The notes under the pieces: model-generated
The model's input: the letters and a program-made list of their open reading frames with translations, nothing else
Databases searched by the model: none
Told to the model about the DNA's origin: nothing
Shown: piece by piece, positions 7,981 to 39,515 of the stretch
Numbering within the stretch: the stretch's first letter is position 1
Layout of the letters: each line of letters starts with the position of its first letter
Translations under genes and position numbers: made by a program
Assembly: GCA_021783455.1 (NCBI GenBank)
Contig: JAJXTW010000003.1
Span: forward strand, 1 to 39,515
Length of the DNA: 39,515 bases
From: Nitrospirota bacterium
Lineage (GTDB): Bacteria > Nitrospirota > UBA9217
Direction: 5' to 3'

Positions 7981-8985
7981 TTATGCTAACACGTATTTAC
8001 CTGTCTTATGGCCTCCTCGCCGCACAATGAGATCGCGCTCTAGAAGAGGTTTGATAATATGGTGCGCCCCAGCCCGAGTTGTAACACGAAGTTCCTTCAT
8101 AATATCGTTGATGCCGAGCGGCGAGTTACGAAGGAGGGCCAGGAGCCTTTCCTGTTTCGGTGTCAATATCAGTTCTTCTCCCGGTTTCGCTCCCTGTATC
8201 GCCTGCACCCGCTTCCAAGCCTGGCCCAGGGCCTCAGCTGCGGCAGCTGCAACATATTCGATCCATCCGGAAAGGTTTCCGCCCGCCTCCTGGACTGAGC
8301 GGAGGATAGAAAAATATTTGTCCCGGTCTTCCCAGTAGACTTCGTCTATAGAGAAGATATGGTAGGTGTCGATTTTCCTCCGATAGAGCTCCCATGTGGC
8401 CAGAAGGCGACCCACCCGCCCGTTTCCGTCGCCAAAGGGGTGAATATGCTCGAACTGATAATGCAGAATAGCCGAGGAAATTACGGCAGGCAGGTCCTTG
8501 CCTTGAAAATTGACCCAATCGAGCAGCTCGGAGACCAGCCCGGGCACATCCTGATACCGCGGCGGCCTGTGTTGCCTGATCACGACCTGATAATCCCGGA
8601 ACTTGCCAATGGGCTCTCGCTCGAGTGCATCCCTGCCGACGATAGCGTGCACCCGAAGGACGTCCTTTACGGTGAGGGCTTTCTTGCTGGAATGGGCGGT
8701 AATATAGCGAAGCGCGGCAAGATAGTTCAACACCTCGTTCTTATACCGGCGCTGGGCCATCGGCAAATCGCCGCCTTTTGACAGGATCTCAACCTCCCTA
8801 AAGGTCAGGGGATTCCCCTCGATAGCGGTTGACGTATGCGCCAGCCGGGCAAAGGCATCGCGCTCCAGGCGCGGCCTCCACTGAACGGACACCGGGGACA
8901 TCTCGATCTTCGTCCTGAGCTCGGATATCTTTTCCAGAAGGCCGGCCGTACGGGAAGTTATCGTATATGCTGGTTTATATCCCAT
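7981..8985 (-). CDS. Fic family protein (N-terminal inhibitory helix, C-terminal HTH)
   Basis: HPFGDGNGRVGR Fic motif; STAIEGN inhibitory motif; winged-helix-like C-terminus. Confidence 0.92.
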   Translation of the reverse strand: MGYKPAYTITSRTAGLLEKISELRTKIEMSPVSVQWRPRLERDAFARLAHTSTAIEGNPLTFREVEILSKGGDLPMAQRRYKNEVLNYLAALRYITAHSSKKALTVKDVLRVHAIVGRDALEREPIGKFRDYQVVIRQHRPPRYQDVPGLVSELLDWVNFQGKDLPAVISSAILHYQFEHIHPFGDGNGRVGRLLATWELYRRKIDTYHIFSIDEVYWEDRDKYFSILRSVQEAGGNLSGWIEYVAAAAAEALGQAWKRVQAIQGAKPGEELILTPKQERLLALLRNSPLGINDIMKELRVTTRAGAHHIIKPLLERDLIVRRGGHKTGKYVLA

Positions 8986-9527: not shown

Positions 9528-10124
9528 CTACCCGCCCTCCTGTCCTTTTTTGAGCTCCATGATCACGAGCTTGGCAATGGCCTTCAAGGTATCAAACACG
9601 CCGGTGCCGTCGGTTGCAATAGCCTCGTAATCAGGGAGGCCGCGCGGATTAAGCGCTTTCTTCATTTCCTCGAGCGGCACGACATTCGGCAGATCGCGCT
9701 TGTTGTACTGGATGATGAAGGGGACCTTGTCCAGATTGTATCCCTGTTCGGCAAGATTGATGCGCAGGTTTTCCATACTCTCGATGTTGGCTTCCATGCG
9801 CTCGACCTGGGAATCGGCTACAAAGACGACGCCATCAACACCCTTCAGGATGAGCTTGCGGCTTGCGTCGTAGAATACCTGGCCGGGGACCGTGTAAAGA
9901 TGAAAGCGGGTTTTAAAGCCGCGAATCTCACCGAGGGCGAGAGGAAGGAAATCGAAGAACAAGGTCCGCTCCGTCTCCGTAGCCAGCGAGATCATCTTGC
10001 CCTTGCTGTCCGGATTCGTTTTTTTGTAAATCCACTGCAGGTTGGTCGTCTTGCCGCACAGCCCGGGCCCGTAAAAGACGATCTTGCAGTTTATCTCTCT
10101 CGACGAATAATTGATAAAGGACAT
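9528..10124 (-). CDS. mglA: MglA small Ras-like GTPase
   Basis: [52 protein letters not shown]. Confidence 0.97.
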
Positions 10125-10173
10125 GAGACGGTAATTCCTCTCCTACCTGCTTTCAGGGATGATCGCGGCTGGG

Positions 10174-10668
10174 CTATCCGAAGAGTTTATCAATATCTTC
10201 GTCCGTTATTTCTGCGAAGGGAGAATCAGCGCTCTTGCCCGAACCCTTTTCTGTTTCCACCTTCTGGAGGAGCTGGCTGAAAATGCTCCCGAGGGCTTCC
10301 GCGCTCTTTTTTACCCGAAGCCGGACAAGGCCGAGCGATGACCGCTGATCGAAGATCACCACCAGGATCACACGTTGCCCGATGATGGAGATATGGATAT
10401 TATCCCGCGCGCCCTCGTGGAACAGGATCGAGAATTCCTTTTCACCCAGGAGTTTGGCCATGCCGCCCGTGGCTGCGATATTGCCGGCGGTGAGCGACGC
10501 AAGCGAGGTGGTGTCGAGGTTTTCCGTCTCGCCGGTGGCCGCTATGAGCTGGCCGTTCTTGTCCACCAGGAACACGACTTTTGCGTTCGCCTGCTGCAGA
10601 AGGCGCTGAAGTTCCGCGTCTATCAGCTTGAATTCTTCATCATACATTACCAAGTCGGAACCCAGCAT
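10174..10668 (-). CDS. mglB: MglB roadblock/LC7 GAP
   Basis: VFLVDKNGQLIA, TSLASLTAGNIAATGG, SSLGLVRLRVKK, PFAEITDEDIDKLF. Confidence 0.96.
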   Translation of the reverse strand: MLGSDLVMYDEEFKLIDAELQRLLQQANAKVVFLVDKNGQLIAATGETENLDTTSLASLTAGNIAATGGMAKLLGEKEFSILFHEGARDNIHISIIGQRVILVVIFDQRSSLGLVRLRVKKSAEALGSIFSQLLQKVETEKGSGKSADSPFAEITDEDIDKLFG

Positions 10669-28821: not shown

Positions 28822-28849
28822 AAATACCCCGAAAAACCTGCTCGGTTAC

Positions 28850-29160
28850 AAACATGCTTATCCACACCTGTGGACAATGCAATTTATATCATTTATTCAA
28901 TTGATTATGAGTTCGTTCGGAGGCCTATTGTCTGCTTTTTGAAACCCTATTTTTGCTTGATTTCTTGTTGCCCTTATGAATCGTACTAAGCACGCATCTT
29001 GCACAACAGGGGGCCGCGGGAGGCCGCTTGATCCAGCGGGCCAAACTATACCAGAACCCGGACTTTCTGGCAAGGTATTTTTATCCACAGGCATGGTCTT
29101 GACGGGTTCCTGTGCCTTGTGTTGTCCAACAAAACAAATCCGCAATGAATCTGTTTATCA
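28850..29160. other. Probable oriC (DnaA-box cluster with AT-rich segment)
   Basis: TTATCCACA 28858-28866 next to TGTGGACAA 28869-28877, an AT-rich stretch ~28881-28910, and TTATCCACA 29081-29089. Confidence 0.75.
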
Positions 29161-29261
29161 GGTTCACGACAGCAACAGAAGCGCTTTTCGCTTGAGCAAA
29201 AATGACAGCATCGAGAAAGACCAATCATCGTGACGGCGGTTTCAAGTAATTAAAAAATTGC

Positions 29262-29290
29262 TTGACTTCGCAACTCTAGAACGGTATTAT
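29262..29290 (+). promoter_or_regulatory. Sigma70-like promoter of tusA-dsrE2
   Basis: TTGACT - 17 nt - TATTAT. Confidence 0.6.
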
Positions 29291-29356
29291 AAAACACTTG
29301 TTTCAATGATGAAGATGAACGAATATCGCTTATAACTTTTTCCGGAGGTGATAAAA

Positions 29357-29599
29357 ATGTCAGCAGATGTGAAGGCCGATCAGGTTCTCGATGCAAAGGG
29401 TTTGAGCTGTCCTCTCCCGATTTTGAAAACAAAGAAAGCGGTGGAAGCACTTTCAAAGAATCAGGTGTTAAAAGTAGAAACCACGGATCCGGGATCAAAG
29501 AATGATATGGCTTCCTGGGCAAAAAGAACGGGCAATGAGATCCTGAAAGTTGAAGAGGGATCGGGGACATTCACGTTCTTTATCAAGAAAACCGCATAA
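29357..29599 (+). CDS. tusA: TusA-family sulfur carrier
   Basis: LDAKGLSCPLPILKTKKA, TTDPGS; GGAGG RBS. Confidence 0.92.
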   Translation: MSADVKADQVLDAKGLSCPLPILKTKKAVEALSKNQVLKVETTDPGSKNDMASWAKRTGNEILKVEEGSGTFTFFIKKTA

Positions 29600-29608
29600 G
29601 GAGAAAAA

Positions 29609-30082
29609 ATGGCAAACAAGAAAATGACAATTATTGCATCGAAGGGTTCGCTGGACATGGCTTATCCTCCCTTGATCCTTGCCACCACGGCAGCAGCCAT
29701 GGATGTTGATGTTACGATATTCTTCACGTTCTTCGGTCTCGACATCATAAAAAAGGGCAATGCAGACAATCTGAAAATCTCACCCATCGGAAATCCGGCA
29801 ATGCCGATGCCGATACCCATCCCGACGTTGGTCGGGTCGCTCCCCGGCATGGAAGCCATGGCGACCTCCATGATGAAATCCATGTTCAAGAAGCACGGCG
29901 TTGCATCGATCGGAACGCTGCTCGACCTCGCCAAGGAGAGCGGTGTTAAACTCATAGCCTGCCAGATGACCATGGATGTCATGGGCGTCAAGCAGTCGGA
30001 CATCGTGGACGGGGTTGAGTTCGGCGGCGCGGCCATGTGGCTGGATGAAGCTTCTGATTCACAGATCAATCTGTTCGTGTAA
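29609..30082 (+). CDS. DsrE2-like (DsrE/DsrF/DrsH-like) sulfurtransferase
   Basis: IIASKGSLDMAYPPLILATTAAAM..FFTFFG, IACQMTMDVMG; paired with tusA as in tusA-dsrE2 clusters. Confidence 0.88.
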   Translation: MANKKMTIIASKGSLDMAYPPLILATTAAAMDVDVTIFFTFFGLDIIKKGNADNLKISPIGNPAMPMPIPIPTLVGSLPGMEAMATSMMKSMFKKHGVASIGTLLDLAKESGVKLIACQMTMDVMGVKQSDIVDGVEFGGAAMWLDEASDSQINLFV

Positions 30083-30112
30083 GCCGCAGATCAAAAATAT
30101 GATGCGTTATTG

Positions 30113-30149
30113 AAAACCGGTTCTGCAAACAGAACCGGTTTTTTGTTTT
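30113..30149. terminator. Bidirectional intrinsic terminator
   Basis: AAAACCGGTTCTG-CAAA-CAGAACCGGTTTT perfect stem between convergent operons. Confidence 0.85.
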
Positions 30150-30190
30150 CTCGGCCTTCTCCTAAAATATTTTTAATATAGGGTCGCCTC

Positions 30191-31441
30191 TCAGAACTCA
30201 TATCTCATCTGTGTATATACATTGTCATTCTTTGCAAATTGCCCGAATTGGCTCCACGGCTTGCCGCCACCGAAGACGTTGCCTCCCATTGCAAGCCAAA
30301 TGGCGTCCGTCAGATTATACTTCACCTCGGGATTCAGCATGTAATCTCCATCCGACAAACCGTAAAACGTAAAGAAGGACAGCCTCAATGTCTGGTTCAT
30401 CAGAAACTGAGTGAGCCGCATTGTCGCAAGCTGATGGAGATGTTTCTCTTGCGGGAAACCGGCGGGCAGGTTTTGAACATAGGCTGAATAATCCTGCATG
30501 TATTCGCCGTAGTACTGAAGCCCCAGCGTGAAGTCCTCCCAGAGCTGTCGTTGATACCCGATCAAATACCGCGTTTGCGAGTTGGGAATCATCGGATCAG
30601 TACCGTGCCTGTCCTGACTCGAATCGTAGTAACCGGCTTCGAGGCTCACGACGCCCTCAAAGGCCTTGCCCTGGGAACTCGCACCGTAGACATTGAGCTT
30701 GGGATAAAAAAGTGTAAGCTTTGTGGGCGTTACCGGGTTGTCGGGCATTATCGACGGCTGCCGTGAGTATCCGCGATAGTAATATAATGATGTATCGAAT
30801 CCGGCCACGTCGCGGTATATACGCATTGCCGTTTCCGCCTCATGGAGGTCTCTGTACGGACCTTGCGCTTCCCTGTTCGTAATGCCCGCCATAGGATCGA
30901 ACATCCAGAATCTTGTCGGGTCAGGGTAATTGTTCGGTTCGAAATACGGGATGGCGATAAGTTCGATTGACGCAAATTCCGGATAGAGACCGATCTTTGC
31001 GCCGTCAACGCCCTTTTTCAGATACTCCAGCGGTCTGCCTGAGAAGAACGCGGCGTAGTCTTTCGGGAATATGTCATTAATAAACAGAAGATCGCCGACA
31101 CCCCAGGTGACGATCTGCCGACCGACGCGCGCGTCCCACTTCTCCGCAGTAAAGTCGAAATACCCTTCCCGGAGTTCCGTAGACGCTTTTTTATCCAGGT
31201 TGTCATAAAAAGCATCTTCCTTCACAAGTAAGTGAAAAGGATCCGCGGCCGCGTCGAGTTTAAGTTGCGCCCGCTCCTCCGACAATTTATAGTCTTTGCC
31301 GTCGGGGTCGTCGGTAACGGTATCTCTTGCGTAGTTTCCCTGAACAAATCCATGCAGGGAAACGTCGCCTGCTGACGCTGTGGAACAGGTAATAATCACA
31401 AGCGCAAGACCAAGAACCGATTTCACAACATTCTCGTTCAT
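30191..31441 (-). CDS. Outer-membrane beta-barrel protein (DUF1302-like)
   Basis: Signal peptide, LREGYFD, RVGRQIVTWG, C-terminal YTQMRYEF beta-signal. Confidence 0.8.
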   Translation of the reverse strand: MNENVVKSVLGLALVIITCSTASAGDVSLHGFVQGNYARDTVTDDPDGKDYKLSEERAQLKLDAAADPFHLLVKEDAFYDNLDKKASTELREGYFDFTAEKWDARVGRQIVTWGVGDLLFINDIFPKDYAAFFSGRPLEYLKKGVDGAKIGLYPEFASIELIAIPYFEPNNYPDPTRFWMFDPMAGITNREAQGPYRDLHEAETAMRIYRDVAGFDTSLYYYRGYSRQPSIMPDNPVTPTKLTLFYPKLNVYGASSQGKAFEGVVSLEAGYYDSSQDRHGTDPMIPNSQTRYLIGYQRQLWEDFTLGLQYYGEYMQDYSAYVQNLPAGFPQEKHLHQLATMRLTQFLMNQTLRLSFFTFYGLSDGDYMLNPEVKYNLTDAIWLAMGGNVFGGGKPWSQFGQFAKNDNVYTQMRYEF

Positions 31442-32101
31442 TTACACTCCCTGAGATTTTATCGCGCGAATGCAGACGAAACCCGCGTTTTCAACCAACC
31501 GGTCATAAGCGATTTCATCATGAGGTTGATCGGACGGAGGCAAACAGAGCGCTGAAGAATAACGATCAATCTTTAGCCCTGAACCTGCTATCAACGATTC
31601 GGCCTCTTCGATACGGTAAAAACGGGCCTCCTGGTAGATAGGATGCCCTTGCGCTTTCTTTGTTTCATACAACTGTCCCCAAGGACTTTCTTTGTTGATC
31701 ATTCCCACGATCAACGCCCCATTCCTCTTTAAGACTCTTTTCGCTTCGGACAGCACCGCTGCCGGATCAGCAACAAAACAAAACGTAAAAAGGATAAAAA
31801 CAGCGCCGAAGGACTCATTGCCGAACGGCAACGCCTCGGCTCCTCTCTGCAAAACCCTGACTCCCCGGCTTTCAGCTATTTCAAGTTCCTTTGCAGAAGG
31901 ATCTATGCCAAGGTCAATTCCCAGCGCTTTTGCAAACCTGCCGGTGCCGACGCCGACCTCCAGAAAAGGACGTTCAATGCCTCTCATTAAAAATCGAACT
32001 GCCTCAACTTCAACCCTGAACAGTTTTTTCCCCACAGGGCTGTCGAACCACCTGTCGTAGTCTTCAGCGCGCTGATCGAAGACCGAGACCGCACCTGTCA
32101 T
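31442..32101 (-). CDS. Class I SAM-dependent methyltransferase (type 11)
   Basis: YDRWF, LEVGVGTGRF, GIDPS, AEALPF, EAKRVLK. Confidence 0.9.
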   Translation of the reverse strand: MTGAVSVFDQRAEDYDRWFDSPVGKKLFRVEVEAVRFLMRGIERPFLEVGVGTGRFAKALGIDLGIDPSAKELEIAESRGVRVLQRGAEALPFGNESFGAVFILFTFCFVADPAAVLSEAKRVLKRNGALIVGMINKESPWGQLYETKKAQGHPIYQEARFYRIEEAESLIAGSGLKIDRYSSALCLPPSDQPHDEIAYDRLVENAGFVCIRAIKSQGV

Positions 32102-35100
32102 TCGATCATCCTCCTTGGCGGCTGTTTGAGATAGCGTTCTGAAAAGAGGCTGTCCTCGACGCCGATATTGTAATCTACCTTCGTGAACGTCACTTCCGTG
32201 ATATGACCGCTCTGGACGTTCTTCATCGTGCGTTTCGTCACGGTGGGGATGCCCTTCACGTCCCTGATCTCGTCGGCGGTGAATGCCTTATAAAGATCTC
32301 CTTTTTTGTCGTAGTATTCCTCTTTGAGCGGCAGAAAGCTCGTTTTGTCCACCCATGATAGTTTGTATCTGTAATCCACGTCGTCTACCTTGGGCGTGCT
32401 CTTGACCACGACGCAGTCCTTTGCGCCGATCTTTTCCTCCTTTACAACAACATGGGTATCGTCCTCCAGGTACCGTCCCGACACGTCCTCATAGGAGAAA
32501 TCCGATCCCACGAAGCTTGAGCTCTTGTCCTGCGCGGCGATCCGTCTCACCATGCTGATTGCGGGAATAAAGAGCCACCGGTCCGCGTCCCTTCCGGGGT
32601 GCTTCCAGACCATGAAGGTCATGTCCTTCACGTCGGCCGGCTGGAAGAAGTACATGAAGTACTTCTGCTCGCCGCCGGTCGTGCCGTAATTCTTTCGGAT
32701 CATGGTCATTTCGCGTATCCGCTCCTGTCCTCCGCTGCTTACAAGCTTCATCATGACCCGTGCCTTAAAATCTTTGCCTGCGTACAGAAAAGCGGTCTGC
32801 GACTTCTTCATGAGCTCCGCACCGTTGTCGGCGGCAGACGATACAGATGCAGCAAGCACGAATGCTAATACCAGCGATGTTGCGGCAACACGTTTCATGT
32901 TGGTTCCTCCTTCGAATAGCCAGCCCTGAAGTAAGGTGATGAGGGCCGGCAGATAGAGCATGGTCATAAGAGCGCTCAAAAGCATCATTGTTACGATAAA
33001 AGCTCCCACAGTGATATACGGCGTGAGCGGGGCGAAGATCATAACTGCGAAAGAAGCGGCAAACAGCACGGCGTTCCGCATGATCCCCTTGCCGGGCCGC
33101 GCCGCGGTCCAGCAGCAGGCGTCATGCAGGGACTCACCCGGCGCATCCACGAGCCGCTGCCTAAGGCGGCTTACAAAATGGATCGCGAAATCCACGGCCA
33201 TGCCGAGGGAGAGGCAGCTCATGACCGATATCGGCATGTCGAAGTCCTTGCCCGCGAACCCGACAGCGCCGTAGATCATGAGGACCGTGAAGATAAGAGG
33301 GATATACCCTACAAGCGCCCACTTAAACGACCGGAAGTCAAGAGCCAGGACGCAGAAGACCGCGACCACGGCAAGGAGAAAACCCTTGACCATGTCCCAG
33401 AGCACTTCATGGTTCCAGACGAGATTGAAGTAAGCTATGCCGGCCGGCTTTATCTCCATGGGCGTCGGATGGGCTTTTTTGTATTCATCCGCCGCGCTGA
33501 TCACCGTTTGCATGGCCTTTGCGTCCCAGGTCTTGAGCTGCACCCAGATGTTCGCGCGTTTGAACGGGTAGTCTACGACATTGTCCAGATCGGACGGTTT
33601 TGCGGACATGGAGAAGAGAAAAAGATACTGGCCTATGGTCTCTTTCTTATCCGGGACCGCGTCGTATTTCGGGTTGTTGTCATGGAGCACCTGGTTGATC
33701 CTTTTCACATAATCTACGACTGACGTCGTTTTTCCCACAACCGGGAGTTTTTCGAGATGACGCTGCAGGCCTTCGATATAGCGCATGGCTTCGGGCGTTT
33801 TGATGTAATCGTCATTCGGCGCGATTGCAACTATATATCCGAGGTCGGTCCCGCCGAGGGCCGCGTTCATCACCCGGTCCGCGGTGCGGACGTCGCTGTC
33901 CTTCTTGAACCACTCCACGAGGTTGTTGTTCACCTTGGTATGCGCGATGCCGGTGATTGCAATGACCGCGAGAACGAGTCCGACGGCCACGACCGTCTTT
34001 GAGTGGTCCGCGCCCAGCCCGGCGAGTTTCCTGAGGAACCGCGCGGTCCGACCGTGCTCTACGTCTTCCCTGGCGGCGATCTTCGCGATCTTTTCTTCGC
34101 TGACAAACGTGAACATAGCTGGGATGAAGCTGAAACTGAGCACCCTCAGCGCGATCGTGCCAAAGGCCACCAGCCCGCCGAAGACCTTGACCGGGATGAT
34201 GTTCATGAACAAGAGCACGCCAAACCCCGCCGCCGTGGCCAAGGCGGTGTTTCGCACGGGCCTGCTCACCGCCCGCATGGTTTCGAGGATCGCCTGTTTT
34301 TTATTCTTCGTCTCCCGGTACCGGAAGTAGAACTCGTTGAAGATGTGCATGCTGTCCGTGGCGATTGCCATCAGAAATACCGGCGCCATGGAGCTCATGA
34401 TGTGGATCGGAAAGCCCAGACCGATCAGGAGCCCCATGCTCCAGACGATGCTGATCATGGCGTCCATCATCAGGGTTATGGAAAGGAAGAGGTCCCGGAA
34501 CATGAGATACCGGACGATGAGCATAACCATGCCAGCGATAGGGGCGAACACGGCCATGAGCTTGAACATTTCAGCTCCGAAGGTGTCCCTCGCAACGGGG
34601 TCCCCCGCGACGTAGAATTTTTCCTCGCCCTTTTCCTTGGCCACGATCTCGCGTATTTTGTCTGCGATCTCCTTGCCGTTTGCCCCTTTTTCGAGGGGGG
34701 CGTAAATGGCCGTGGTCTTCCCGTCTTTTGATATGATCCGATTTATGAAGAGCGGATTCTCGTAAAGCATCTTCCGAAGCGCGTCGATGCCTTTGGCGTT
34801 TTGCGGAGCCGCGGTCATGAGCGGGGCGACTCTGAGAGTTCCATTTTCCACGGAAACATTATCGATCGTGGTAAAGCTCGACACGTCACGGGCAGCAACA
34901 CCCTTGATCTTCAGTATCTCGTCGGTGATACGCTGGATCTTGCCGAGAGTGTCCGGATTCAGGACGCCCTTCTCGTTCACAATCCCCACGGCGATCGTGT
35001 CCTCGTAGAGGCCGAAGGTCTTTTCAACGCTGTCGTTCCAGACCCTGACATCGGACGTGGCCGGAAGCATGTTCTTCGGGTTCGTGTCGGTCCGCATCTT

Positions 35101-35199
35101 CGGGAACTGCGTCATGAAAAGAAGCGTCAGTATTACCGTCAGGACAACGACCAGTTTCGGGTGCTCCACGGAAAACTCAACCAAGGAAAATTTGCGCAT
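32098..35199 (-). CDS. MMPL/RND-family transporter fused in frame to a LolA-like outer-membrane lipoprotein-sorting domain
   Basis: Two MMPL repeats (ATDSMH; AVDFAIHF); residues 768-1033 start with a signal peptide and contain QPADVKDMTFM and SFVGSDFSYED. Confidence 0.88.
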   Translation of the reverse strand: MRKFSLVEFSVEHPKLVVVLTVILTLLFMTQFPKMRTDTNPKNMLPATSDVRVWNDSVEKTFGLYEDTIAVGIVNEKGVLNPDTLGKIQRITDEILKIKGVAARDVSSFTTIDNVSVENGTLRVAPLMTAAPQNAKGIDALRKMLYENPLFINRIISKDGKTTAIYAPLEKGANGKEIADKIREIVAKEKGEEKFYVAGDPVARDTFGAEMFKLMAVFAPIAGMVMLIVRYLMFRDLFLSITLMMDAMISIVWSMGLLIGLGFPIHIMSSMAPVFLMAIATDSMHIFNEFYFRYRETKNKKQAILETMRAVSRPVRNTALATAAGFGVLLFMNIIPVKVFGGLVAFGTIALRVLSFSFIPAMFTFVSEEKIAKIAAREDVEHGRTARFLRKLAGLGADHSKTVVAVGLVLAVIAITGIAHTKVNNNLVEWFKKDSDVRTADRVMNAALGGTDLGYIVAIAPNDDYIKTPEAMRYIEGLQRHLEKLPVVGKTTSVVDYVKRINQVLHDNNPKYDAVPDKKETIGQYLFLFSMSAKPSDLDNVVDYPFKRANIWVQLKTWDAKAMQTVISAADEYKKAHPTPMEIKPAGIAYFNLVWNHEVLWDMVKGFLLAVVAVFCVLALDFRSFKWALVGYIPLIFTVLMIYGAVGFAGKDFDMPISVMSCLSLGMAVDFAIHFVSRLRQRLVDAPGESLHDACCWTAARPGKGIMRNAVLFAASFAVMIFAPLTPYITVGAFIVTMMLLSALMTMLYLPALITLLQGWLFEGGTNMKRVAATSLVLAFVLAASVSSAADNGAELMKKSQTAFLYAGKDFKARVMMKLVSSGGQERIREMTMIRKNYGTTGGEQKYFMYFFQPADVKDMTFMVWKHPGRDADRWLFIPAISMVRRIAAQDKSSSFVGSDFSYEDVSGRYLEDDTHVVVKEEKIGAKDCVVVKSTPKVDDVDYRYKLSWVDKTSFLPLKEEYYDKKGDLYKAFTADEIRDVKGIPTVTKRTMKNVQSGHITEVTFTKVDYNIGVEDSLFSERYLKQPPRRMIE

Positions 35200-35264
35200 A
35201 CTCCTCCCCCCCTCTACGCATGGAAATATAGCGATGTTTGCATGTATCGACTGAAATAAAAAAT

Positions 35265-35687
35265 CTAAAACGTAAGGTTCATATCCGCCGGGATCACGGT
35301 TTCCTTGTAATAATGCGCGGGATCGGCAACCTTCACGCCGTCGATTAATTGTTTCGGAGAGATATTGAAGAGCGACACGTTCAAGGGACAGGCAAGTACG
35401 GTCGCGCCCTCGGCGATCAGCATGAAGAAGAGATCCTCGACGGATGGAAGGTCCATTTCCTCCATCTTCTTCATCACCGCGTCGCCCTCTTCCTTCGGCT
35501 GATCAGGCAGGCACTTGAGGTCTTTCACTTTTTCTTTGTGCACCGCGTTGATGCCCCGTGAGCCGAAGAACATGGTGACCTTCGAGCCTTCCCGAAGTAA
35601 GCTAAGCGCGGTCATGAGAGCGTTGTATACCTGGCAAAGCTCGTCATGGAAGCACATGATCGATACATTTTTTATTATCTTGGTCAT
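35265..35687 (-). CDS. DsrE-family protein
   Basis: VTMFFGSRGINAV, VLACPLN, C-terminal NLTF. Confidence 0.75.
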   Translation of the reverse strand: MTKIIKNVSIMCFHDELCQVYNALMTALSLLREGSKVTMFFGSRGINAVHKEKVKDLKCLPDQPKEEGDAVMKKMEEMDLPSVEDLFFMLIAEGATVLACPLNVSLFNISPKQLIDGVKVADPAHYYKETVIPADMNLTF

Positions 35688-36027
35688 ACTGGTTCTCCTT
35701 TCGCATCCCCAAACCCCGATTCATTGGCGCTGGAGTATCTCCATAGAGCTGTTCCAAACCTTCCTGCATCAAGCTGCACGCCTGACAGATCTTTTCATTT
35801 GCGATTCCATAATACACATTAACGCCTTCCCGTCTCGTCGTAAGGATGCGCTCCATGCGCATGAGAGCCAGATGCTGAGACGAATTCGCCTTAGACACTC
35901 CGAGCTTCTCGGTGATCTCGCCGGCAGTCAGTTCTCCTGACCGGAGCAGACAGAGTATCTCTAGCCTCGTGGGGTTGGAGAATATCTTGCAAAAATCAGC
36001 GTGCAGTTTCAAGATCTCCTTCTTCAT
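35644..36027 (-). CDS. ArsR/SmtB-family repressor, BigR/SqrR-like
   Basis: FCKIFSNPTRLEILCLL, SQHLALMR, RREGVNVYY, KICQAC; ATG 36027 overlaps the sqr stop (ATGA). Confidence 0.85.
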   Translation of the reverse strand: MKKEILKLHADFCKIFSNPTRLEILCLLRSGELTAGEITEKLGVSKANSSQHLALMRMERILTTRREGVNVYYGIANEKICQACSLMQEGLEQLYGDTPAPMNRGLGMRKENQYDQDNKKCIDHVLP

Positions 36028-37214
36028 GGCAGATTGCTGAGCCCCCTCTTCATCTTCCAGAGGAAGTATTTTTCGAACCGGACCTTCATCCACTTCGCCC
36101 AGATGGTCTTCTTCGTGTAGGAACTCTGGCGCGGCGGAAGCACGGGATAGGCCTTCATGTATGCTGCTGTGTTTCCCATGTCCATGAGACAAACCACGCC
36201 GATTTCCGACGGGGGAGGCGGGGTCTTCCCGGTGATGCCGGCAGCGATAGTTGCCGCGGCAATCTTCGCCATCTTCACCGTCATAAATCCGGTCTTGGGA
36301 ACGCCCGTCGGCACCGGCGTCGCCTCCGGCGGTGCAATGGCCATGGTAACACCGACGGCAAAAATATTTTTATATTTCGTGTGACGATAGTTCTTGTCAA
36401 CCGGGATGAACCCGCGGGGATTTCCCAGCGGCATGACGGCAGGCACACCTTTGAACGGCGGCGCGATCATGGCGAGTTTGAAAGGCAGCTTTGTGCCGTC
36501 CTTGAGCTTGATTTCTCCGGGCGTCACCTCTTCAATGGCCTGGCTGATGAGGGGCTTGATGTCCCGCTCGGCAAATTCGTCTTCCATGAAGCGCTTTGAT
36601 TTGCCGAGACCGCCGACGCCCATGTGGCCGAGATAGGGTTCCGAGGTGAGATAGAGGATGGGTACTTTGCTACGTATTTTCCGGCGGCGAAGCTCGGTGT
36701 CCATCTCAAACGCGAGCTCATAGGACGGGCCGAAACAGCTCACCATCTGCGACGAGCCGACAACAATCGGACCGGGGTTCTCCAGGATCTTTTTCCACGA
36801 TTGCCCGGCTCTTAATGCATGATCGAGGGTAAACGTACAGTCGGTATGGCCCCTGTCAGGTCCCAACCCGGGGATCTCATCAAAGGAAAGATGCGGTCCC
36901 GTAGATATTACGAGAAAGTCATAGGGCAGCTCTTTCCCTTTAGCCGTGATGACCTTCGATGACTCAGCGTCAACCTGTTTTGCCGCATCGTGGACGAAAT
37001 CGATCTCTTTGGGTTTAAGAATCTCGCTCACCTTGAGGGTAATATCTTCCGGCTTTCTCCACCCCATGATAAGCCACGGCAGCGACGGAAGGAATACGAA
37101 TCGATCATCGTCGCTCACCACGGTCACGTCGGCTTTCTTCCCGAGCAGACGCTTAAGCTCGAAGGCCGCTGTCAATCCCCCGAACGATCCCCCTAACACA
37201 ACGATCCTTGACAT
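36024..37214 (-). CDS. sqr: Sulfide:quinone oxidoreductase
   Basis: VVLGGSFGG FAD motif, SCFGPSYE, GVPKTGFMT, VCLMDMG, amphipathic C-terminus KVRFEKYFLWK. Confidence 0.85.
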   Translation of the reverse strand: MSRIVVLGGSFGGLTAAFELKRLLGKKADVTVVSDDDRFVFLPSLPWLIMGWRKPEDITLKVSEILKPKEIDFVHDAAKQVDAESSKVITAKGKELPYDFLVISTGPHLSFDEIPGLGPDRGHTDCTFTLDHALRAGQSWKKILENPGPIVVGSSQMVSCFGPSYELAFEMDTELRRRKIRSKVPILYLTSEPYLGHMGVGGLGKSKRFMEDEFAERDIKPLISQAIEEVTPGEIKLKDGTKLPFKLAMIAPPFKGVPAVMPLGNPRGFIPVDKNYRHTKYKNIFAVGVTMAIAPPEATPVPTGVPKTGFMTVKMAKIAAATIAAGITGKTPPPPSEIGVVCLMDMGNTAAYMKAYPVLPPRQSSYTKKTIWAKWMKVRFEKYFLWKMKRGLSNLP

Positions 37215-37264
37215 AATAACCTCTCCTTTCTGCATGTATCTGCGTGACAGATCTTGTTCAAATT

Positions 37265-37939
37265 TTATTTACTGCGTCCATACCGTGTCAGATAACCGAC
37301 GACCTCTGTCTTTTCATTATCCGTAATTATCTTTTTGCCCATGGATCGCATATTGGACTGCATTCTATCTACGACTTTGGGCCATTCGTCGGCTGTATGA
37401 AGCTTTGGGTCCGGAAGAGGATGACACTGCGAGCACGTCTCCTTAAAGAGGACGGCGCCTTGTGATCCAGGGGCAGGAAGTTCGCTGGGAGACAGGGACT
37501 TCATGGCATTGGTCTTTAAGTAAGACACGATCGCCTGTTGTTCTTCGGACGATGGCAACTCTACATTCATCATTCCTATCATGGCGGACATCATGGACAT
37601 GCGAGAGAACATCCGCGAGGTTACGCCCGGCCATTGCTCGGCCGTATGCATTGCCGGACTAGGGAGGTTGTGACATTGGGTGCAATAGCGGACCAGAAGT
37701 TTGGCCCCTGGGCTGTCCGGCAAAGGAAGGTCTTCCGGTGTGATCCCAAGCGGGAGCATGTCCGGCATCATCCTTTGCATCATTTCTTTCATTCCTCCCC
37801 GGCCCATCATTCCACCGCTCGTCATCATGCCTCCAGGCATCCCTAATTGACTGCTCCCGGACCCATGCATTGCGACAATACCTGTTATCCCGAATACGAT
37901 CAAAACAATCGCAATTATCAGCAATCGAATATTCTTCAT
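37265..37939 (-). CDS. Exported diheme cytochrome c with Gly/Met-rich N-terminus
   Basis: Two CxxCH motifs (CTQCH, CSQCH), each followed by HTAxxWP...RM; N-terminal hydrophobic segment. Confidence 0.85.
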   Translation of the reverse strand: MKNIRLLIIAIVLIVFGITGIVAMHGSGSSQLGMPGGMMTSGGMMGRGGMKEMMQRMMPDMLPLGITPEDLPLPDSPGAKLLVRYCTQCHNLPSPAMHTAEQWPGVTSRMFSRMSMMSAMIGMMNVELPSSEEQQAIVSYLKTNAMKSLSPSELPAPGSQGAVLFKETCSQCHPLPDPKLHTADEWPKVVDRMQSNMRSMGKKIITDNEKTEVVGYLTRYGRSK

Positions 37940-37955
37940 GGCGCATTGACTCCCA

Positions 37956-38288
37956 CTATGAAATATCCTTTTTTATCTTTTCATACTCTTCTTTGGTGAT
38001 TTCCCCCTGAGCATATCTTCTTTTCAGAACATCAAGCGCCGTTTCCTGTGGCTGCGGCCCGCGATCTTTCTCAACAACCGCTACTATCCATCGGACAAGC
38101 AGGACGATCCCGGCGATTACGGCAATCCAGAATCCGACCATGATGACGCTCATGAACCAACCCATACCGTATCCCCATCCCATCATTCCAGGCCCCATAC
38201 CGTAACCACCGCCCGGACCCTGTGCAAAAGCATATGAAGCCTCGCTGAGATAGACCGCTGTTATGAATGTTCGTAATGCTTTTTTCAT
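37956..38288 (-). CDS. SHOCT-domain membrane protein
   Basis: GMGPGMMGWG, one transmembrane helix, ALDVLKRRYAQGEITKEEYE. Confidence 0.88.
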   Translation of the reverse strand: MKKALRTFITAVYLSEASYAFAQGPGGGYGMGPGMMGWGYGMGWFMSVIMVGFWIAVIAGIVLLVRWIVAVVEKDRGPQPQETALDVLKRRYAQGEITKEEYEKIKKDIS

Positions 38289-38363
38289 AATATTCTCCTG
38301 GTCGCTCCCTTTTTTTTACCCGGTCCTTTGCGTTTTACGACTCGCGCCGTGACTCTTGGTGGC

Positions 38364-38645
38364 TCAAAACATTCCTGTGACCTTTTCGCCGCTCGTTATA
38401 ATGTCCGTCAATTTATCGTAGTCGATAATTTTGACCCGATCATCCATCTCGGTATCCTTGAGACCCCGGAGCCTCTTGTCGTCATCCAGGACATACACTG
38501 TCCGGGCAAAATCGCCGAGCCGTTCTTTTTTCGCAAAATACACGCCATTCTGCAGCAAGATAAGATCGGCCCCGCTTTCTTTCGCAAGAGTCAATCCGAG
38601 TGCTCCATCAGTCGTATCCGGCGCGCTCTTTATCATCACGAACAT
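38364..38645 (-). CDS. DsrH/TusB-like protein
   Basis: LILLQNGVY, VYVLDDDKRLRG, IIDYDKL. Confidence 0.85.
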   Translation of the reverse strand: MFVMIKSAPDTTDGALGLTLAKESGADLILLQNGVYFAKKERLGDFARTVYVLDDDKRLRGLKDTEMDDRVKIIDYDKLTDIITSGEKVTGMF

Positions 38646-38656
38646 AGCAGCCTCCT

Positions 38657-39010
38657 CTAGAATATCATGGTCGATTTTGCTTCCTTCAGCAGTCCCGCAA
38701 TCTCTTTGGCGCCGACCACCTTGACGTTTTCGACGAGCTCGTTTGACGGGACCCCCTGCGTTTTGAGCGACGCAGTGTCGGCATAGACGGCGACTCCCAT
38801 TTCGACGCAGTCCTTGAGAGTGCCTTCGAGATTCGTGAAGCCGGTACCTTTGTCGTCCTGCCCCTTCTTTGCAAGCAGCACCCCGCCATCGACCAGAATG
38901 AGGTCAACGCTTAATTCCCCGGACACCGCGCCGAGGGCGTGGCGCACGGCCTCGGCTGCGTTGATGTCGCCGTAGGGAGATCTCTTCAGGATCATTGCAA
39001 CATTTGCCAT
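38657..39010 (-). CDS. DsrF/TusC-like protein
   Basis: ILKRSPYG...EAVR, LVDGGVLLAKKGQ, VYADTASL. Confidence 0.82.
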   Translation of the reverse strand: MANVAMILKRSPYGDINAAEAVRHALGAVSGELSVDLILVDGGVLLAKKGQDDKGTGFTNLEGTLKDCVEMGVAVYADTASLKTQGVPSNELVENVKVVGAKEIAGLLKEAKSTMIF

Positions 39011-39019
39011 ACGCTCCTC

Positions 39020-39376
39020 CTATGCACCGAGATTAATCCACACGTCCGTCTCGCCCATGGTTGCAAACAGGCCTTTGAGCGAGCCGACTTCCGTACCTGC
39101 AAGATAGTCTTCTTTCGCTGCACGGCGAAAGTTGAGGCACCCGCCTCAGAGATACACCTTCAAGCCTTTTTGTATGAGCCTGGTGAACTCCTCCTCGGCG
39201 TTCAGAATGCCTTTCGCTTTCTGTTTGGTCAGGAAACAATAGATTCCGTCAGCCGATGCGATGAGATTGACGGTATGGCCCTTGTTCAAAGCGGATTCGG
39301 CAATGCGGGCGCTTGTTAGTGTGTTCTCGTAGGAATACGGCGAGGTGGTCAGATACAGCGTAACGGTTTTCGGCAT
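39020..39376 (-). CDS. DsrE/TusD-like sulfurtransferase with in-frame UGA (probable selenocysteine, U77-G-G-C), 118 aa
   Basis: TTSPYSYE, ASADGIY; frame stays open through TGA (39148-39146) as GGCLNFRRAAKEDYLAGTEVGSLKGLFATMGETDVWINLGA* to a TAG that overlaps the dsrF RBS. Confidence 0.85.
39112..39131 (-). promoter_or_regulatory. Candidate bacterial SECIS hairpin
   Basis: CUUUCGC-CGUGCA-GCGAAAG; stem starts 14 nt and loop 21 nt after the UGA, with GU near the 5' side of the loop. Confidence 0.6.
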
Positions 39377-39387
39377 AGAACCCTCCT

Positions 39388-39513
39388 TTATACGAGTGTT
39401 ATTTCACTGTCGCACATGATCGATGTCTTCAAGCTTTGGTACGTAATGGTATCGTTCCTTGCGATGAGCCGTCCGTTCAAGACAACGGAAGGACAGGGAA
39501 CTGGGTCTCGTTG
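39388..39513 (-). CDS. C-terminal end of a small thioredoxin/glutaredoxin-like protein (5' part outside the window)
   Basis: ...RDPVPCPSVVLNGRLIARNDTITYQSLK...* resembles the cis-Pro/beta-strand end of the Trx fold; stop abuts the AGGAGG RBS of dsrE. Confidence 0.5.
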   Translation of the reverse strand, partial: QRDPVPCPSVVLNGRLIARNDTITYQSLKTSIMCDSEITLV

Positions 39514-39515
39514 CC

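Follow-up and report, generated by a model that had tools for sequence, protein, structure and literature searches.

We identified, on contig JAJXTW010000003.1 of the Nitrospirota bacterium assembly GCA_021783455.1, a minus-strand gene run that we read as a conserved, horizontally mobile island for sulfide and zero-valent sulfur (S0), with an envelope conduit that carries hydrophobic S0. This reading was given about an even chance of being right; the cargo of the conduit and its direction are what we infer. Judged from its sequence, the run is operon-like and encodes a type I-like sulfide:quinone oxidoreductase (SQR), a DsrE-F-H trio with selenocysteine (Sec) in its first subunit, a DrsE_2-family protein with four cysteines, a two-cysteine ArsR regulator and a putative three-part conduit. 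The predicted conduit parts are a resistance-nodulation-division (RND) pump of the HAE3 family, a soluble LolA-like periplasmic protein and a DUF1302-like β-barrel.

The window, to which all coordinates refer, is the complete 39.5-kb contig (C295) of a metagenome-assembled genome (MAG) of 302 contigs, with 89% completeness and 3% contamination, and its nearest public loci belong to MAGs labelled Nitrospirota/Thermodesulfovibrionales. The minus-strand run extends from 30191 to the contig end and comprises twelve genes with internal gaps of 0-75 nt. The contig ends inside the thioredoxin-like gene, and the upstream neighbourhood lies outside the window. Ten of the genes and the elements within them are given here, and the remaining two are described further below with the other neighbours.

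39388..39515, minus strand: thioredoxin-like gene, C-terminal 41 codons, cut by the contig end (translation and full-length homologues)
39020..39376, minus strand: dsrE selenoprotein gene, 118 residues, U77, motif U-G-G-C (PF02635, 53 bits)
39146..39148, minus strand: in-frame TGA, Sec codon 77 of dsrE (conserved in homologues)
39112..39131, minus strand: hairpin resembling a selenocysteine insertion sequence (SECIS), CUUUCGC-CGUGCA-GCGAAAG, 14 nt past the UGA (covariation)
38657..39010, minus strand: dsrF-like subunit (PF02635, 61 bits)
38364..38645, minus strand: dsrH-like subunit, without cysteine (PF04077, 39.7 bits)
36024..37235, minus strand: sqr, type I-like sulfide:quinone oxidoreductase (3HYV match, E 9.5e-96)
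35644..36027, minus strand: ArsR-family regulator with the conserved pair Cys13/Cys84 (Pfam, PDB matches)
35265..35687, minus strand: DrsE_2-family (DsrE2/E3-like) protein with four conserved cysteines, 12, 18, 59 and 100 (Pfam, alignment)
32899..35199, minus strand: MMPL/HAE3-like RND part of a fusion protein (MMPL, E 2e-29, 102.8 bits)
32098..32898, minus strand: LolA_like domain, fused in frame to the MMPL part (LolA_like, E 1e-62)
31442..32101, minus strand: class I S-adenosylmethionine (SAM) methyltransferase, cytoplasmic (Pfam, NCBIfam)
30191..31441, minus strand: DUF1302-like outer-membrane β-barrel, 416 residues, with signal peptide and C-terminal ...RYEF (ESM Atlas neighbours)

The tight packing with overlapping stop and start codons, described in an earlier note on this DNA, was confirmed. 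Three junctions of the run overlap or abut; the TGA of sqr and the ATG of arsR overlap as ATGA, and the methyltransferase gene overlaps the preceding mmpL-lolA gene by 4 nt and abuts the barrel gene. The dsrE, dsrF and dsrH genes stand in tandem (PF02635, PF02635 and PF04077), separated by 9 and 11 nt. Pfam and NCBIfam scans backed all gene families of the run, so that the family calls of the earlier note hold throughout. Its statement that dsrAB and dsrC are missing from the window was also borne out by the Pfam scan. Both are encoded elsewhere in the genome, with dsrA (568 bits) and dsrC on contig C272 and three dsrC-family matches, and several YedE-family genes are likewise found elsewhere in it.

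Loci sharing the transporter were retrieved with a five-sequence MMPL alignment, which yielded 80 loci (identity of at least 72%) from MAGs labelled Nitrospirota, Rokubacteria/Methylomirabilota, Deltaproteobacteria/Desulfobacterales, Omnitrophota, Elusimicrobia, Planctomycetota and others. Genes were scored by tblastn with the window proteins (E up to 1e-6, at least half of the query covered, same strand). Upstream genes were counted in the 53 loci whose sequence reaches 4 kb or more ahead of mmpL, and downstream genes in the 59 loci whose sequence continues for 7 kb or more past the mmpL start. Upstream of mmpL, sqr was present in 41/53 loci, dsrE and dsrF in 40/53 each, dsrH in 35/53, arsR in 32/53 and the DrsE_2 gene in 28/53; downstream, lolA was found in 59/59 and the barrel gene in 58/59. 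As a control, 11 paralogous MMPL loci of the same phylum (21-33% identity) were scored by the same criteria, and sqr, dsrE/F/H, arsR and DrsE_2 were found in 0/11, with a LolA-like gene adjoining in several of them and a barrel gene in some. Triads of paralogous MMPL, LolA-like and barrel genes (L125-L134, L015), up to three per genome, were also seen in non-sulfur contexts.

In 401 genomes sampled evenly across the phylum, an MMPL orthologue was present in 67 (49/162 genera) and a sqr match in 155; the two tables were paired by hand for the 67 carriers. The sqr gene lay near mmpL in 44 of the 67 carriers, within 2.4 kb on the same contig in 43 and across a contig break in one (G007), and in another 8 carriers it was elsewhere or its position was unlisted. 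The co-occurrence of the transporter with sulfur-relay genes in other genomes, which the earlier note had put forward as a test of its proposal, was thus found. It is strong, specific to this MMPL orthologous group and present across labelled phyla.

Furthermore, the arrangement of the island varied considerably. In the Rokubacteria-labelled loci the order was arsR-dsrE(Sec)-dsrF-mmpL-lolA-barrel, in some cases with methyltransferase and/or sqr after the barrel gene, and a minimal module arsR-mmpL-lolA-barrel was found in MAGs labelled Omnitrophota, Planctomycetota and Elusimicrobia. In place of the type I-like enzyme, some loci contained type III-like SQRs (206-267 bits on the type III model versus 106 for the window SQR), placed between mmpL and lolA (L101), after the barrel (L092) or after dsrH (L082, L084); another (L037) follows an ArsR-rhodanese fusion. 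Further genes were inserted mostly between mmpL and lolA, namely a periplasmic rhodanese (13 loci), a YedE/Sulf_transp protein (15/80 loci), a secreted 141-aa protein (14 loci) and a YgaP-like transmembrane protein (11 loci). In 13 loci, TauE/SafE genes stood upstream. A copy on contig C195 of the same genome, like other loci, has a second ArsR upstream, with cysteines at its C-terminus. One locus (L054) also carried a periplasmic redoxin, a DsbD_TM membrane protein and HdrD-like CCG proteins. This re-forming of the association with different parts and gene orders appears to be a sign of a functional link, beyond inheritance. The secreted protein (~133-141 aa; L078, L083 and 12 others, in the mmpL/rhodanese interval) gave no Pfam or NCBIfam match.

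The selenocysteine of DsrE was examined in the homologues of the 80 loci. A TGA was present at the aligned dsrE codon in 48/48 of them, including 16 that are only 34-41% identical. The SECIS-like hairpin has 7 bp, begins 14 nt after the UGA and lies within the coding sequence. Across 41 sequences, 90.2% of the cells were paired, versus 40-61% with slid partners, compensatory changes were observed in 4/7 pairs, and 0/500 shuffles matched the observed pairing or covariation. This set omits eight Rokubacteria-type sequences, which have their own perfect hairpin in another register. The minimum free energy fold of the region past the UGA chose a different structure that was no better than shuffles (z -1.15); hence, the hairpin was judged by covariation. 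The genome encodes one tRNA-Sec and selB, which is split between two contig ends (pieces of 231 and 96 bits).

A second dsrE-F-H copy, on contig C195, showed 86-90% nucleotide identity and kept the TGA and the downstream sequence; either paralogy or a mixture of strains in the bin could account for it. This copy (L135 1-3695) is preceded by another ArsR with a C-terminal CC motif, a thioredoxin-like selenoprotein gene and a split TauE/SafE permease. The full thioredoxin-like gene is present there at ~654-924, and also in L039, L062, L066, L071, L054, L086 and L120. Its homologues carry NDPMGKR-U (in-frame TGA, U-xxN) in 8 distinct loci and cysteine in one (L069). Since TGA occurs both in dsrE and in the thioredoxin-like homologues, the island encodes two selenoproteins, the thioredoxin-like one being the second. 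A full selD gene (TIGR00476, 320 bits) was observed inside or beside the island in 8/80 loci, including L049 and L083.

Most Thermodesulfovibrionia are reported to have dsrFH but to lack dsrE (PMC11033732). Cutting of dsrE at the Sec codon by gene callers explains this reported gap. A "DsrE-like, UxxC" selenoprotein family has been listed and is described as functionally uncharacterised (PMC1088965, PMC13188914), and the part of a report on new selenoprotein families that was available (10.1101/2022.07.06.499078) deals with SAO, a system unrelated to this locus.

The window SQR shares ~50% identity with type I enzymes of known structure, those of Aquifex and Acidithiobacillus (3HYV, E 9.5e-96; 3SZ0, E 1e-93). 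The cysteines of its catalytic triad, Cys133, Cys167 and Cys349, were kept in 42, 44 and 45 of 45 homologues, respectively, and Cys133 aligned two residues off the 3HYV cysteine. The sulfur-relay subunits were more divergent from known models: DsrF scored 41.3 bits on the TusC/DsrF model (cut-off 94.15), DsrH 40.1 bits on the TusB/DsrH model (cut-off 49.2), and DsrE matched no NCBIfam model. The nearest solved chain to DsrE was E. coli YchN (E 0.03), with CxxC aligned to UxxC, and U77 occupies the position of the DsrE active-site cysteine (Cys78 in type I). None of the three subunits has a signal peptide. The DrsE_2 protein is strongly conserved, with its four cysteines invariant. The ArsR protein falls in the non-metal branch, its best PDB matches being Rv0081, NolR, HlyU, BigR and SqrR, and its cysteine positions were compared via HlyU, NolR, Rv0081 and YgaV alignments. 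C13 was conserved in 31/31 homologues and C84 in 29/31. The 65-nt region upstream of mmpL was read for an operator and contained no clear palindrome, although a full search of intergenic regions was not part of this reading.

Regarding the conduit, the MMPL part scored 189 bits on the HAE3 model TIGR00921 (cut-off 352) and showed sterol-sensing/Patched signatures in Pfam. The LolA_like domain (PF17131, 211 bits; DUF1329 only 18.9 bits) matched close, solved but uncharacterised structures (9TP6, E 1e-53; 3BK5; 4Z48). It retains its own signal peptide within the fusion (MKRVAATS...SSA/AD), and mmpL and lolA are separate genes in most relatives. Since the contig of metagenome run X2 spans 32387-35194 without gaps, the fusion is not obviously an assembly error, and it argues that the two predicted products work together. 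As a defining feature of the system the fusion was rejected, being present in only 3/59 loci. The barrel protein scored 20.2 bits on DUF1302 (PF06980), below the threshold of 23.2. Its nearest ESM Atlas clusters were DUF1302 (score 0.99) and its C-terminal F416 was invariant in 48 sequences; a search of its profile against solved structures found no relative (best E 0.97).

According to the mechanism that we propose, SQR would oxidise sulfide at the inner membrane to polysulfane or S8, which would partition into the membrane; the Aquifex SQR reportedly holds polysulfur or S8 in its active site. Sec-DsrEFH and the DrsE_2 protein would mobilise a share of this sulfane sulfur, bound to protein as perselenosulfide or persulfide, and pass it towards TusA/DsrE2 and towards the DsrC/DsrAB system, the latter being encoded elsewhere in the genome. 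Such a route from DsrEFH to TusA, DsrC and DsrAB would parallel the model drawn for cable bacteria (PMC13293266). The RND pump, the LolA-like carrier and the barrel would move S0 between the inner membrane and the cell exterior, probably outwards as an overflow, with the uptake of external S0 as a close alternative. Via its Cys13/Cys84 pair, ArsR would derepress the genes when reactive sulfur rises, and the methyltransferase, the SHOCT protein and the cytochrome c of the run would be accessory.

Several observations weigh against this reading. No sulfur gene was found nearby in 5/53 loci, 4 of which keep arsR beside mmpL, and 15 of the 67 carrier genomes had no sqr match at all. Among 14 other genomes of the window's genus, sqr was present in 12 and the MMPL orthologue in 2. 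In G014, trx-dsrE-F-H-sqr is kept at 90-97% identity and followed by only the first 47 arsR codons (L136 9401-9541), and in G183 the arsR codons 1-55 adjoin a barrel fragment (L138 8229-8516); a barrel fragment of 58 residues comes directly after sqr where the transporter is absent. These remnants look like deletion scars, from which the conduit was lost and sqr-dsrEFH retained, and they indicate that the sqr-dsrEFH module can do without the transporter. The carrier loci are, moreover, linked by descent and transfer, and their counts overstate their independence. The hand-over from SQR to DsrEFH is a difficulty, because DsrEFH is presumably cytoplasmic and type I SQRs are generally thought to face the periplasm. 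The persulfide regulation put forward in the earlier note is not supported as such: the position of the HlyU sensing cysteine ("ILC" in helix α2, with a partner near the end of α5; C26 here) was a cysteine in only 5/31 homologues and the protein scored 55 bits on the BigR model (cut-off 155); its membership of the SqrR/BigR family was rejected for these two reasons. Lastly, the methyltransferase gene, present in 23/59 loci, equally fits an organic or methylated cargo.

The same island could work with S0 as cargo in the inward direction. The barrel and the LolA-like carrier would then capture insoluble extracellular S8 and deliver it to the inner membrane, much as cholesterol goes from NPC2 to NPC1, and Sec-DsrE would open the ring and feed the Dsr pathway for S0 oxidation or disproportionation. 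We regard this alternative as unlikely, although it has arguments of its own. Uptake would be favoured because such modules are needed on insoluble substrates and because YedE-like importer and periplasmic rhodanese genes are interleaved with the transporter genes. Related MMPL-LolA and barrel systems were induced or needed on n-C28 alkane (PMC6304351) and on butyl stearate or Tween 20 (10.1101/2020.07.04.188060), DUF1302/DUF1329/RND mutants being described as defective on fatty esters in the latter. The sterol-sensing/Patched signatures of the pump are in line with this direction, and a selenolate that is obligate in all 48 DsrE sequences would suit the opening of S-S bonds. Against it, the operon is tied to SQR, a producer rather than a consumer of S0. 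To our knowledge, all characterised bacterial RND transporters export their substrates, and this polarity, together with the repressor inside the operon, which is more typical of stress or efflux modules, led us to favour export.

A second alternative is that the methyltransferase converts SQR-derived sulfane sulfur to a methylated or organic sulfur (or selenium or arsenic) compound, such as dimethyl polysulfides or methylated metalloids, which the conduit exports; this seems quite improbable. The class I SAM methyltransferase gene occurs in several positions (between lolA and the barrel gene, upstream of mmpL or after the barrel gene), the regulator belongs to the ArsR family, with the second ArsR with C-terminal cysteines in the C195 copy and others, and selD is adjacent in 8 loci, all of which would agree with such a cargo. 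Nevertheless, 36/59 loci lack the gene, the closest relatives G019 and G003 among them; it is therefore no core gene, and we treat it as an accessory component. The protein matched no arsenite or thiol methyltransferase model above cut-off (best, the DVU_1556 family with 51 versus 155 bits), and small methylated sulfides pass membranes without a transporter.

Alternatively, the conduit may move an envelope lipid or a quinone, as HpnN does with hopanoids, and adapt the outer membrane to sulfide stress, with sulfur as the signal rather than the cargo. This was considered just as improbable as a methylated cargo. The only characterised HAE3 members cited in the available text of PMC6394551 are hopanoid transporters, and the export of a cell-wall component was proposed by Price et al. 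for DUF1302/DUF1329/RND clusters (10.1101/072470). Across the phylum, paralogous MMPL genes are common at loci that have no sulfur gene, in several cases next to LolA-like and barrel genes; in L037 the SQR-like gene and mmpL are separated by a fatty-acid hydroxylase gene; and the methyltransferase has weak UbiE/MenG similarity. On the other hand, the island has no conserved genes for lipid biosynthesis, those interleaved in it serve sulfur transfer and thiol redox, and the involvement of two SQR classes suggests that the SQR reaction itself is what matters. That two modules merely hitch-hike in one mobile island, co-inherited and without functional meaning, is very improbable: the patchy distribution (67/401 genomes; 2/14 in the genus), the occurrence of each half alone and an MMPL identity of at least 72% across differently labelled phyla, suggestive of recent block transfer, would fit, but the association persists with differing gene orders, SQR classes and placements, the mmpL/lolA interval has taken up sulfur genes, the run has overlapping start and stop codons and no terminator inside it, and the paralogous modules show the association in 0/11 cases.

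A bolder form of the S0 reading is that the conduit of pump, LolA-like carrier and barrel represents the first dedicated machine carrying S8 or polysulfane across a Gram-negative envelope, coupled to SQR and to an obligately Sec-dependent DsrE(Sec)FH relay with a selenolate that opens S-S bonds. We hold this to be possible but doubtful. If true, it would explain the S0 deposition outside, or the S0 uptake, by anaerobes of several phyla, as well as the "dsrFH, no dsrE" pattern in Thermodesulfovibrionia.

The island was also compared with described systems. The AmeABCD system of Castellaniella defragrans, of the same architecture, serves monoterpenes (PMC6394551). As in AmeABCD and the DUF1302/DUF1329/BNR/RND clusters of Pseudomonas and Shewanella, a putative HAE3/COG1033 RND protein, a LolA-superfamily protein and a DUF1302-like barrel are co-encoded, and a link to hydrophobic substrates exists there (PMC6394551, 10.1101/072470, 10.1101/2020.07.04.188060). 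Unlike AmeABCD, the island has no BNR/COG4447 (AmeC) gene: none was found in the window run or in the gene clusters that recur across the 80 loci. Its periplasmic protein is a PF17131 LolA_like of ~260 aa instead of a DUF1329 of ~450 aa, its barrel has ~415 aa with a sub-threshold DUF1302 match instead of ~600 aa, and its context is SQR, DsrEFH and ArsR instead of hydrocarbon or fatty-ester catabolism. The pair TOL_3187/TOL_3188 of Thalassolituus oleivorans likewise consists of a fused MMPL-LolA_like protein followed by a barrel/porin gene; TOL_3187 and the porin were both strongly induced on solid n-C28 alkane (PMC6304351). The likeness is one of architecture, the sulfur context being found here only, and the function of the TOL pair was deduced from proteomics.

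Similarly, the three small genes follow the E-F-H order of canonical DsrEFH/TusBCD, and the genome also encodes DsrAB, DsrC and TusA. The differences from canonical type I DsrEFH are Sec instead of Cys in all 48 DsrE sequences and subunits under the TusC/TusB cut-offs. The neighbours are sqr and the RND conduit, as opposed to dsrAB (type I) or tusA/yeeE (type II); type II DsrEFH is described with synteny to tusA and yeeE/yedE and with an active Cys67 (PMC13293266). YedE-like genes do lie beside the transporter genes in 15/80 loci, and tusA upstream in 1/53. DsrE shares PF02635, UxxC and a SECIS element with the DsrE-like UxxC selenoprotein family (PMC1088965, PMC13188914), and goes beyond that family as described in forming part of a DsrE-F-H trio, as its first subunit, within a conserved sqr/RND island, a context that the available portions of these sources do not mention. 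The pairing of a non-metal ArsR with sqr recalls the SqrR/BigR/HlyU/YgaV operons (sqr, pdo, rhodanese, TauE), as do the upstream TauE/SafE genes; in contrast to those operons, the cysteine pair is C13/C84 and the island has no persulfide dioxygenase gene.

Full-text literature searches for sqr with MMPL, LolA or RND gave no description of the combination, and LolA-like with MMPL gave the alkane study only, in agreement with the earlier note, which knew of no characterised system of this kind. The component families are known and their combination appears undescribed. The passage of S0 across the outer membrane and periplasm is an unsolved question, both for cells that deposit S0 and for those that depend on it, and the island is a testable candidate. 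It is widespread, in 67/401 genomes of the phylum and in MAGs labelled as five or more other phyla. The Sec-containing dsrE changes the scoring of "oxidative" sulfur markers in genome surveys, and, given two selenoproteins in the island, sulfur oxidation in these groups would be tied to the selenium supply. The island also offers a physiological context for the uncharacterised DsrE-like UxxC family and for MMPL/LolA-like/DUF1302 modules.

Apart from the conserved genes, the end of the window contains the following features.

30112..30143, no strand assigned: terminator hairpin where the barrel and dsrE2 genes converge (14-bp stem)
29348..29599, plus strand: tusA (PF01206, 84 bits)
29609..30082, plus strand: dsrE2 (DrsE_2, 189 bits)
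37228..38385, minus strand: strain-specific insertion with SHOCT and cytochrome c (skipped in other metagenome runs)
37956..38288, minus strand: SHOCT protein (Pfam)
37265..37939, minus strand: cytochrome c, Met-rich, membrane-anchored, with two CxxCH motifs (Pfam)

The terminator that, according to the earlier note, is common to tusA-dsrE2 and the run corresponds to the 30112-30143 hairpin, A-rich on one side and T-rich on the other, which is the sole strong terminator-like site in the window; the total of 15 such sites is at chance level (10.8 +/- 3.2 expected), and the other 14 are weak. The idea that the system converges on tusA-dsrE2 did not survive, since this convergence is a local accident. 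Neither gene followed the barrel in any of the 59 loci, tusA was upstream of mmpL in 1/53, and the pair belongs to the dnaA locus. The order dnaA-tusA-dsrE2 is conserved in 12/13 related genomes, and G005, with 99-100% identity to the window, is alone in having the barrel gene next. tusA-dsrE2 was therefore rejected as a member of the system by synteny. TusA has the CPxP motif (GLSCPLP), and DsrE2 scored 206.4 bits on NF047629, just under the cut-off of 210.

The SHOCT and cytochrome c genes, taken as parts of the system by the earlier note, proved to be a strain-specific insertion of ~1.16 kb. Contigs of the metagenome runs X2, X3 and X7 join 37227 to 38386 or 38441, skipping 1.16-1.21 kb, positions 37362-37903 were uncovered in all four metagenome runs, and dsrH is directly followed by sqr in the relatives. 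Each gene was counted in 1/59 loci, and both were rejected as core parts on account of these counts and the skipping contigs. The only other locus with the pair is L054, where it follows an extra ArsR after the barrel gene.

The first 28821 positions of the window carry housekeeping genes, the last ones being gyrA, gyrB, dnaN and dnaA. The spacer between dnaA and tusA (28822-29347) is probably oriC, with DnaA boxes at 28858, 28869 and 29081, two exact and one with a single mismatch; the DnaA-box count over the whole window was not above chance. Additionally, a Ras/Arf-like small GTPase gene adjoins that of a Roadblock/LC7 protein at 9528-10668, resembling an MglA/MglB pair, and a Fic-domain gene was located near this pair, at 7981-8985.

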